DNA from: Escherichia coli
GTDB lineage: Bacteria; Pseudomonadota; Gammaproteobacteria; Enterobacterales; Enterobacteriaceae
Direction: 5' to 3' (one strand)
Length of the DNA stretch: 64,000 nucleotides
Assembly (NCBI RefSeq): GCF_016026235.1
Contig: NZ_CP065613.1
Made by a program: the position numbers
Shown: piece by piece, positions 23,501 to 26,500 of the stretch
How positions within the stretch are numbered: the first letter of the stretch is position 1
Layout: every line of letters starts with the position of its first letter

Positions 23501-26500
23501 CCTTCAGGGGTATATCAACGCCTATTTGACGGAAACTGATCACGAGAACCCCAGCAAGGAAACTCTCACAGCTACCCGGCATACGCCGGAAAAAGATATC
23601 CTGGAAGAAATTAACCGCGAGGTGGTTACTGAGCGTGAAACAGAAGAAGAAAAACCACAACCATCTGACGCAATGGCAGGTGAACAGGCAACAACTGAAA
23701 CAATGGAACCGGATACAACTGAACATTGCCAGAACGCGCAGTCGCTGGATGCTCAGTCGCAGGTGAGTTCCGCTAACCAAGTAAAAGTCACCGCTGACGA
23801 AGTAAACAAAATTATGCAGGCAGCCAATATCAGCCAGCCTGACGCCGATAAGTTACTTGCTGTATCGCGTGGTGAATTTGTTGAGGGGATTAGCGACCCT
23901 AATGATCCGAAATGGGTCAAGGGGATCCAGACTCGCGATTCTGTGAACCAGAACCAGCATGAATCGGAACGGAACGACCAAAAAGCGGAACAAAACAGCC
24001 CAAATGCGTTACAAAACGAGCCAGAAACGAAACAATCCGAACCAGTAGCGCAACAGGAACCGGAAAAAGTCTGCACCGCCTGCGGTCAGAGCGGTGGCGG
24101 CAACTGCCCTGATTGTGGCGCGGTGATGGACGACGCAACATACCAGAAAACATTCGATGAAGAGAATCAGGTTGAAGTTCAGGAAAATGATCCGGAGGAA
24201 ATGGAAGGCGCTGAACATCCACACAAGGAGAATGCTGGCAGCGCTCAGGACCACGCCAGCGATAGTAAAACTGGCGAGACGGCAGATCCCTTAATTACGG
24301 TGAATGGTCATCACGAAATCACATCCACCAGCAGGACGTGTGACCATCTAATGATCGACCTTGAAACCATGGGAAAAAATCCTGATGCCCCGATCATCTC
24401 AATAGGTGCAATATTTTTCGATCCGCAAACCGGAGATATGGGACCCGAATTTAGTAAGACTATCGATCTGGAAACTGCTGGCGGAGTCATTGATCGGGAC
24501 ACCATTAAATGGTGGCTTAAGCAATCACGCGAAGCGCAATCTGCCATTATGACCGATGAAATCCCGTTAGATGATGCACTGTTACAATTGCGGGAATTTA
24601 TCGACGAAAACTCCGGTGAATTTTTTGTTCAGGTCTGGGGAAATGGAGCCAACTTCGACAACACGATTTTGCGCCGTTCATACGAACGGCAGGGGATCCC
24701 CTGCCCGTGGCGTTACTACAACGATCGCGATGTACGCACAATCGTTGAGCTGGGGAAAGCCATAGACTTCGATGCCAGAACGGCTATTCCATTCGAAGGT
24801 GAGCGCCATAATGCACTTGATGACGCTCGTTACCAGGCAAAATACGTTTCAGCTATCTGGCAAAAACTGATCCCGAGTCAGGCTGATTTTTAATGTTCAA
24901 CCCTAATTGCCGCTAACCGTATATAGTTAGCGGCGGTTATGAGATATAGCTATGAGCAGCTTATTTTTAACCGAAGATGAATTGCTAATATTAACGGGCT
25001 GCAAATATGCAAGCCACCAGCGAAAATGGTTAATGGAAAACGGGCTTCCGTTCTATACCAATCGTAGTGGCAAACCGATTGTCAGCCGGGATCTATTTAC
25101 CTGCAATAAAACTTTACCACCACGCGAGGTAGAGCCGAATTTTGGTGCGATCTGATGGGAAGACGAAGGAAAAATCCTGAACACGAAAAATTACCTCCAA
25201 ATGTATACCCAAATAAATATAGTTATGTATGGAAACCAACATCCAGAGAATCTGTAACACTAACCGCCATCAAGGATGGTTTAGCTGCTTTATGGAAAAA
25301 GTATGAGGAAACTGTAAATAATCGCGATCGTGCAATGACATTCGGTCGCTTGTGGGAAAAATTCCTCGCCAGCGCCTATTACAGTGACCTCAGTCCAAGA
25401 ACACAAAAAGATTATCTGCAACATCAAAAAAAGTTGCTTGCCGTATTCGGTAAGGTGTCGGCAGATTCCATAAAACCAGAACACATCCGTCGATACATGG
25501 ACAAGAGAGGGGAACAGAGTAAAACGCAAGCCAACCATGAAAAAAGCAGTATGTCCCGCGTTTACAGTTGGGGGTATGAGCGAGGGTACGTGAAGGCTAA
25601 CCCATGTGCAGGTGTAAGTAAATTCAAGGCCAAAAACCGCGAACGATATGTAACCGACAAAGAATACCAGGCAGTATTAAGCGTTGCACCTCTTCCTGTT
25701 TTTATCGCAATGGAAATTGCCTATCTGTGTGCAGCGAGGGTTTCCGATGTGTTATCGCTGAAATGGGAGCAGATTGGAAACGACGGGATCTTTATCCAGC
25801 AAGGGAAAACAGGAAAAAAACAGATAAAAGCATGGAGTCCACGATTACAGGCGGCGATCGAAAAAGCAAAACAGTTACCAAAATCTGCCTATGTGATCAG
25901 CAATCAATACGGCAACCGATATATGTACAAAGGCTTTAACGAAATGTGGGTAGATGCAAGAAATCGTGCTGGAAAAATTTCAGGTATTTTAACCGACTTC
26001 ACCTTTCATGATCTGAAGGCGAAAGGAATTTCAGACTATGAAGGAAGCAGCCGGGATAAGCAACTTTTCTCTGGTCACAAAACCGAAGGGCAAGTGCTAA
26101 TCTATGACAGGAAGGTTAAAGTTTCACCAACACTTGATGTCCCGTTACCTGAAAATATTCCAAGAAAATATTCCAAGTGTGATTTTTGTCACTGACTTAA
26201 TGATGTGTAAGTGATTGAATTTTGGCGGAGAGAGGGGGATTTGAACCCCCGGTGGAGTCGCCCCCACTCCGGTTTTCGAGACCGGTCCGTTCAGCCGCTC
26301 CGGCATCTCTCCGTTCAGATGGTTGCCATGATGCCAGGAAATTTGGCATTTTAACAGTCCCTGTCCGTGCAATTTTGTTCAAGTGACGAGTTTGCGAGCA
26401 AAACGATGATTAAGTGGCCCTGGAAAGTACAAGAATCAGCACATCAAACTGCCCTTCCCTGGCAGGAAGCACTATCGATCCCCCTTTTAACGTGTCTGAC

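Follow-up and report, generated by a model that had tools for sequence, protein, structure and literature searches.

At one locus of Escherichia coli (assembly GCF_016026235.1, contig NZ_CP065613.1), a gene encoding a tyrosine integrase is directed toward the 3' end of serU, the gene of tRNA-Ser(CGA). The locus lies within a stretch of 64,000 nucleotides, the whole of which is called the window hereafter. The question it raises is whether the two genes are neighbors as the result of a phage integration and, if so, where the prophage ends, which part of the tRNA gene took part in the exchange, and what has become of the element since. The best explanation is a lambdoid temperate phage that very probably integrated at serU by site-specific recombination between its own attachment (att) site, attP, and serU, and that later decayed. 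For annotation, this interpretation would place the prophage boundary at 26222/26223, describe serU as a chimeric gene that contains a 62-bp att block, and describe the element as a degraded prophage that should not be counted as inducible.

A prophage boundary at the 3' end of serU

A single tRNA-Ser gene with a CGA anticodon is detected by ARAGORN at positions 26223-26312 of the minus strand. It is 90 nt long with an encoded CCA end, and the Rfam tRNA model scores it at 57 bits, for a gathering score of 29. In the annotation of K-12 MG1655, the identical locus is serU (b1975), flanked by yodB and mtfA in the gene order yodB, serU, mtfA, asnT, and yeeJ, which bears out the name proposed in the initial annotation. 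On the right side of the tRNA gene, the window contains the host flank expected from K-12 synteny, with mtfA (26367-27203, plus strand, Pfam Peptidase_M90), asnT (27304-27379, detected by ARAGORN), and, at the place of yeeJ, an open reading frame (ORF) of 2643 amino acids (27742-35673). On the left side, the integrase gene int (25155-26195, plus strand) stops at 26195, leaving 27 bases before the CCA end of serU at 26223. The ORF and the ARAGORN prediction thus agree with the earlier statement that int stops close to the 3' end of a 90-nt tRNA-Ser(CGA) gene located on the opposite strand.

The unoccupied serU site is present in MG1655, and its alignment with the window gives the position of the junction. 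Rightwards from 26223, the window is identical to the yodB-serU-mtfA site of K-12, bar three bases within serU. Left of 26223, the two sequences are unrelated, the similarity breaking exactly at this base. The right boundary of the prophage is at 26222/26223. Because the synteny break falls exactly at the tRNA end, beside an integrase, the adjacency of int and serU is not due to chance, and a tyrosine integrase gene stands at the end of the element, adjoining its target tRNA gene. With the match of the integrase to PF00589, its alignment with lambda Int, and the phage genes that follow leftwards, this break supports the earlier proposal of a prophage with a tRNA-targeting integrase. The part of the prophage contained in the window extends from 58 to 26222, as judged from a blastn comparison with the serU prophage of RMDEC465 and from Pfam, PHROG, NCBIfam, and Rfam matches. 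The window is colinear with the RMDEC465 prophage over eight blocks showing 76-98% identity.

The att block and the attP form of the element

The att sites were defined by aligning the attR of the window with those of RMDEC465 and SCU-105, two relatives with complete genomes and an identical int-xis-serU arrangement at the junction, with the attL of the same two relatives, and with the attB of K-12; the attP of Klebsiella phage KpF5 and attP contigs from IMG/VR were also compared. An identity block of 62 bp emerges at 26223-26284. It corresponds to tRNA positions 29-90, beginning at the tRNA 3' end and stopping at the second base of the anticodon stem, and attL diverges from attB after the position matching 26284. 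Past the 3' end of the tRNA, 15-17 further bases (TAAGTNATTGA) are imperfectly alike in the phage and host flanks, and this similarity may explain the 77-nt att repeat reported for the serU prophage of SE11 (PMC2608844).

An attP composed of the int-side arm, the 62-bp core, and the far arm can be predicted from these junctions. When the corresponding 83-nt pattern was searched in IMG/VR, the predicted attP was found contiguous in two viral contigs, one of which, 43.7 kb long, has a core with G/T/C at the three positions that vary within serU. Thus, the attP form of the element exists. In phage KpF5, whose Int is 59% identical to that of the window, an identical 62-bp serU block is found directly after int and ends at the same base. 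Two INPHARED entries, ON470583 and ON470580 (int 98%), were rejected as sources of attP, because both are prophage predictions in which mtfA and asnT are included.

By analogy with its relatives, the present copy would have been integrated by the same exchange. The recombination would have been catalyzed by the phage's own lambda-Int-type tyrosine integrase, with attP bringing its own version of the 3' part of serU (62 bp, anticodon stem through CCA), and with strand exchange in the anticodon stem-loop. At the int-side junction (attR, at the right in the window), the product would be a complete, functional-looking serU, the 5' 28 nt and the promoter of which come from the host, while the displaced host 3' fragment would mark the other end of the prophage, left of the window. 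Int and a DUF4224 excisionase encoded just upstream would both be required for excision. After integration, two copies of an insertion sequence (IS) and a frameshift in terL have broken the structural genes. The general principle, in which the tRNA gene is restored on one side and a fragment is displaced to the other, has already been described, as have anticodon-centered attP sites (PMC4383910).

The integrase, the excisionase, and candidate arm-type sites

The integrase has 346 amino acids. Its Pfam matches are Phage_integrase (PF00589, E 2e-11) and SAM-like N-terminal integrase domains; it also matches PHROG 1 "integrase", and it aligns with the lambda Int structures of the PDB over residues 1 to about 313. 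Its N-terminus carries an arm-binding-type motif, MGRRR...LPPNVY, which aligns with residues 1-20 of lambda Int (MGRRR..LPPN.Y). The active-site positions are R195, K218, H285, K288, H308, and Y317. Hence, the canonical R-K-H-R-H-Y hexad is incomplete: five of its residues are present (R195, K218, H285, H308, and Y317), but the HxxR box reads HDLK, and the alignments place Lys288 where lambda Int has its catalytic Arg311. The same lysine is common to the integrases of KpF5, Evi, and mEp390 (49-59% identical), whereas the more distant relatives Xfas53, Magia, Alize, and lambda have an arginine at this position. The clade with Lys288 is presumably active, because phages KpF5, Evi, and mEp390 exist, as do hundreds of att-bounded lysogens. 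It may even be, although we put this forward tentatively and rather doubt it, that the serU-targeting clade (this prophage, the O157 serU prophages, KpF5, Evi, and mEp390) is a natural active variant having Lys instead of the second Arg of the R-H-R triad. If this is true and undescribed, HDLK would represent a natural active-site variant of tyrosine recombinases.

Just upstream, a small gene on the same strand (24952-25155, 67 amino acids) encodes an excisionase-like protein of the DUF4224 family (Pfam PF13986; PHROG 1266 "excisionase", E 3e-21). Its stop overlaps the start codon of int by 1 nt, and the reading frames of int and xis are both open.

The last codons of int contain two tandem copies of AATATTCCAAG (26154-26177, plus strand). 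Two matches to this sequence in 64 kb are, taken alone, not significant. Relatives have three copies at the end of int, plus one direct copy and one inverted, degenerate copy in the far arm. In KpF5, the end of int contains a triple repeat of another sequence, ATTTTCTCA, with an inverted copy in the other arm, and this difference accompanies a different N-terminal sequence of Int. Since the position of the repeat is conserved while its sequence changes, the AATATTCCAAG repeats are candidate arm-type Int-binding sites of a two-site, lambda-like Int. With two copies instead of three, the int frame ends differently, so that Int has 346 amino acids here and 341 in SCU-105, a change located well past Tyr317. 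Thus, repeats that overlap the 3' end of int vary between 2 and 3 copies among strains and thereby alter the C-terminal tail of Int.

Decayed structural genes and the second att site

The structural genes are interrupted at several places. An IS4-family element of about 1.29 kb (4540-5833, minus strand), with a 437-aa DDE transposase ORF (DDE_Tnp_1; NF033591, 360 bits), is an insertion relative to RMDEC465. It lies within the portal gene and is accompanied by a target duplication of about 10 bp, GAGTAAATCC. The end of a second copy of the element, inverted, occupies positions 1-57. Indeed, bases 1-56 of the window are the reverse complement of the first 56 bases of the portal-gene IS, and the match with RMDEC465 starts at base 58, inside the tail sheath gene of that prophage; this second copy therefore interrupts the sheath gene. 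Finally, terL (7118-8876, minus strand) is split into ORFs of 146 and 434 amino acids that match the two halves of Pfam TerL. An additional C, in a run of C near 8450, causes the split and appears as a single gap against the 98%-identical gene of RMDEC465; it could be a real inactivation or a homopolymer sequencing error. With its portal and sheath genes interrupted by IS copies and its terL frameshifted, the prophage is not intact. Judged from these reading frames, it would probably be unable to form particles, while excision may be possible, int and xis being open. The version with an IS in the portal gene is found in none of the complete E. coli genomes, among which the best match to the structural region covers 81%, and the exact IS/sheath junction gave 0 matches among GTDB species representatives. 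The inverted IS pair brackets the block of head genes in the manner of a composite transposon.

The initial annotation placed the other att site beyond the left edge of the window. In agreement with this, the 64 kb contain the tRNA 3' segment a single time, even with 3 mismatches allowed (0 expected by chance), and a direct-repeat search over positions 1-30000 gave no second att copy. The presence of that site upstream is deduced from relatives, in which the spacing is 46.7 and 48.1 kb. In RMDEC465, the attL and attR cores are 46,717 bp apart. In SCU-105, which has the same int-xis-serU junction, the displaced serU fragment lies 48.07 kb away, beside the normal zinT-side flank. In seven further genomes, pairing the attR and attL match positions gives a spacing of roughly 40-48 kb. 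The attL core of RMDEC465 is found about 20.0 kb past the base matching position 58 of the window, a distance that includes about 4 kb of IS elements specific to RMDEC465. By analogy, and counting in the IS copy at the edge of the window, attL is expected 16-22 kb left of the window, for a whole element of about 43-48 kb. It would consist of a copy of TGGCGGAGAGAGGGGGATTTGAACCCCCGGTAGAGTTGCCCCTACTCCGGTTTTCGAGACCG with the host-type bases A/T/T, preceded by GGAGATAAGTCATTGATAAAG, from the yodB/zinT-side flank, and followed by ATGATACAGAGTCG. A scan of GTDB species representatives for the attL junction returned only the 1.5-kb contig JAIJJM010000739.1, listed under a Collinsella metagenome-assembled genome; this contig carries the attL junction of E. 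coli serU and almost certainly comes from Enterobacteriaceae, having been placed there by mis-binning.

Several points weigh against a decayed prophage that integrated at serU in this way and is still bounded by its two att sites. The far att site is outside the window, and its existence as well as the size of the prophage are extrapolated from relatives. Moreover, with an IS at the left edge of the window, the far end may have been lost through an IS-mediated deletion or rearrangement. The interval assigned to the crossover (see below) is deduced from relatives and attP contigs rather than from this genome's own attL. Lastly, Lys288 in place of Arg311 could, alone, hint at an impaired enzyme, although integrases of sequenced phages have the same lysine.

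In a first alternative, the window contains only the right-end remnant of a classic serU integration, whose far att site has since been lost or moved by IS activity, leaving a fixed, non-excisable fossil. The two inverted copies of one IS4-family element in structural genes, with the window beginning inside one of them, are in keeping with such a history, as are the frameshift in terL and the failure to find this disrupted version in any complete E. coli genome. However, the 26 kb of prophage in the window are colinear with the att-bounded prophage of RMDEC465, showing no inversion or loss apart from a mosaic replication module. In addition, int and xis have remained open, and relatives of the same prophage type that bear IS insertions keep both att sites. 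We therefore regard a remnant as unlikely, though it is the least improbable of the alternatives.

Position of the strand exchange and origin of the present serU

The initial annotation assumed an att core overlapping the 3' end of the tRNA gene. The att block does overlap the 3' part of serU, but the exchange appears to have taken place in the anticodon stem-loop (26266-26284) and not at the 3' tip. Evidence comes from the three bases at which the serU of the window differs from that of K-12, namely 26254, 26259, and 26265, all located in the long variable arm. At these positions, the attL of RMDEC465 and that of SCU-105 have the host bases A/T/T and are identical to K-12 within the block, while the attR of the same two lysogens have G/T/C, and the serU of the window has G/C/C. 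The variant bases of attR are also found in the attP contigs. The variable-arm bases would therefore be derived from the phage, with the exchange located between 26266 and 26284. This pattern of bases in attL, attR, and attP confines the crossover to tRNA positions 29-47. The interval is that of the anticodon stem-loop, made up of CCGGT, the loop TTTCGAG (26274-26280), and ACCG, with the anticodon at 26276-26278. The 7-bp overlap of the exchange may correspond to the anticodon loop itself.

A crossover at the extreme 3' end of the tRNA gene or in the T-loop would make the variable-arm differences mere polymorphisms of host strains. Many tRNA-targeting integrases do use a T-loop or 3'-end junction (PMC4383910). 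Nevertheless, two independent lysogens have the host bases in attL and the variant bases in their own attR, the variant bases are those of attP in viral contigs, and such a crossover does not require a 62-bp block ending in the anticodon stem, as is observed in attL, in attP, and in the attP of KpF5. This second alternative is accordingly improbable, and an exchange in the anticodon stem-loop is the reading retained here.

The present serU would thus be a host-phage chimera. Lying beyond the att block, tRNA positions 1-28 are host DNA; positions 48-90, at least, appear to have been supplied by the phage. The gene regenerated at the int-side junction forms a full cloverleaf. In the variable arm, the A48-U59 pair is replaced by G48-C59, and the loop changes from GCAA to GCGA. 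As the change of pair is compensatory and the loop is still of the GNRA type, the chimeric serU keeps its fold. To our knowledge, serU is the only tRNA-Ser(CGA) gene of E. coli. Lysogeny would therefore rewrite the variable arm of the cell's only gene for this tRNA, with a compensatory G-C pair. A terminator scan of the phage DNA located downstream of serU gave nothing convincing.

The arrangement resembles the anticodon-loop class of integration sites (Williams 2002; subsite "A" of Islander, PMC4383910), in which attP carries the tRNA gene from the anticodon stem-loop to the 3' end, likewise here. In this class, the tRNA gene is regenerated and a 3' fragment is displaced, and a symmetric stem flanks a 7-nt loop able to serve as the overlap. 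The present case shows no difference in kind.

Gene content of the prophage

From right to left, int and xis are followed by a gene for an 813-aa exonuclease (Exonuc_VIII and a 3'-5' exonuclease domain) and by a dicB/ydfD region with the DicF RNA. Next come a relBE-like pair, cI-like and cro-like regulators, an O-like replication gene with iterons, and hok/sok. Further to the left are DUF968, RusA, Q, four tRNA genes, holin, lysozyme, Rz, HNH, terS, and terL. The leftmost genes encode the portal, the prohead protease, an HK97-type capsid, connectors, a tail terminator, and the start of the tail sheath. The order int-xis-recombination, immunity, replication, Q, lysis, packaging, head, and tail is that of a lambdoid phage. 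The early region is lambdoid, and the virion module is of the contractile-tail type. The element is lambdoid in the layout of its early genes and not in its virion type, because the tail is contractile, sheath and baseplate genes being present in RMDEC465.

This content also speaks against a third alternative, in which int would be part of a satellite or of a non-phage integrative element that merely adjoins phage DNA, as could occur in a tandem array at serU. Integrative elements have been reported at serU in O121:H19 (PMC8767318), and relatives carry non-phage cargo (Mn-catalase and ferritin-like genes in SCU-105, ipaH in RMDEC465). However, the int-xis-exo-dicB-immunity-replication-Q-lysis-head-tail order is continuous, with no internal att copy in the window, and the attP contig directly links the int arm and the far arm of a single element. 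A non-phage island was rejected on these grounds, and since the sequenced phages KpF5 and mEp390 encode the same type of integrase, this last alternative is highly improbable.

Several features within the prophage can be located more precisely. The paired 16-bp sites AATAGCGATGCTATTT, 25 bp apart, occur at 19528-19568 and at 20664-20704 and flank both the cI-like repressor gene (19573-20103) and the relBE-like toxin-antitoxin pair (20123-20607). These sites probably serve as OR- and OL-type operators, which would place the toxin-antitoxin module within the immunity region. The DicF antisense RNA (21759-21810, Rfam 76.7 bits) is upstream of the dicB-like region. The match to the sok antitoxin RNA (14575-14750, Rfam 118.9 bits) indicates that the prophage has a hok/sok module. 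Two clusters of 11-bp iterons of the CTTCGAAGCCC type (17575-17888), located inside the O-like initiator gene (16952-18115), are probably the replication origin of the prophage. The replication module (about 14.3-18.8 kb) is largely different from that of RMDEC465.

The four tRNA genes (Met-CAT, Lys-TTT, Thr-TGT, and Gly-TCC; 11365-11674) lie between Q and the lysis genes. SCU-105 has ileZ-argN-argO-type tRNAs at the same place, where such tRNAs are found in many lambdoid and Shiga toxin (Stx) phages. The relatives also differ in the cargo at their far end. In SCU-105, it consists of Mn-catalase, ferritin-like, and general-stress genes (21301-23514 of the compared SCU-105 stretch). In RMDEC465, it consists of a methyltransferase gene and ipaH, encoding a type III secretion system effector (730-3357 of the compared RMDEC465 stretch). 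The corresponding part of the present prophage is outside the window.

Occurrence and relationships with known systems

Using a 281-nt query with at least 80% coverage, the junction between the end of int and serU was found in 1146 of 5426 complete E. coli genomes. Thus, serU is a standard prophage site of E. coli, and about a fifth of the complete genomes have this junction. The count for the far-end junction is 834 complete E. coli genomes. Many O157:H7 strains have the int-side junction at 97.9-98.2% identity. With the 281-nt query, no genome of the collection reached 99% or more; in a separate search, the best junction match among complete E. coli genomes was 99.3%.

The serU prophage arrangement is common and already documented. 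serU is the recorded site of Sp14 in O157:H7 Sakai (PMC8190617); Sp10 of the same strain was considered as the serU prophage and ruled out, the literature giving Sp14 (PMC8190617). In SE11, PP_SE11-6, 47.6 kb long, sits at serU (PMC2608844). Prophages as well as integrative elements have been reported at serU in O121:H19 (PMC8767318), and the serU prophage of O145:H28 is highly mosaic and carries effector genes (PMC7067040). A GenBank record named "Escherichia phage SerU-LTIIb" indicates, by its name alone, that such a prophage is known.

These prophages have the same target and, as here, lie on the yodB/zinT side of serU; their reported (PMC2608844) or measured sizes are 46.7-48.1 kb, and their bodies are highly mosaic (PMC7067040, PMC8767318). 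In the present element, in contrast, the int/xis module is joined to a contractile-tail module with an HK97-type head. Moreover, it has two arm repeats instead of three, a G/C/C variable arm, and a replication module unlike that of RMDEC465; its disruption by two IS4-family copies is unique.

Compared with lambda, Int would have the same two-site build, arm and core, and the two proteins align from the N-terminal arm-binding motif to the catalytic tyrosine. A small excisionase gene located upstream and overlapping int, as well as candidate arm repeats on both sides of the core, are also lambda-like. However, identity with lambda Int is 22-24%, Lys replaces Arg311, and a DUF4224 excisionase takes the place of lambda Xis. 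Lambda attB is intergenic, between gal and bio, whereas the target here is a tRNA gene, and the candidate arm-type repeats extend into the 3' end of int.

The closest integrases from sequenced phage genomes are those of KpF5 and of the coliphages Evi and mEp390, 49-59% identical, which have the HDLKAKGISDYEG motif in common with the present one. The hosts and the phage bodies are different and, in the case of KpF5, so are the arm repeat (ATTTTCTCA there, AATATTCCAAG here) and the N-terminal domain of Int. As to its wider interest, the curiosities of the locus are limited to the Arg-to-Lys change of the integrase clade and to the candidate arm-type repeats that overlap the end of int and vary within it.

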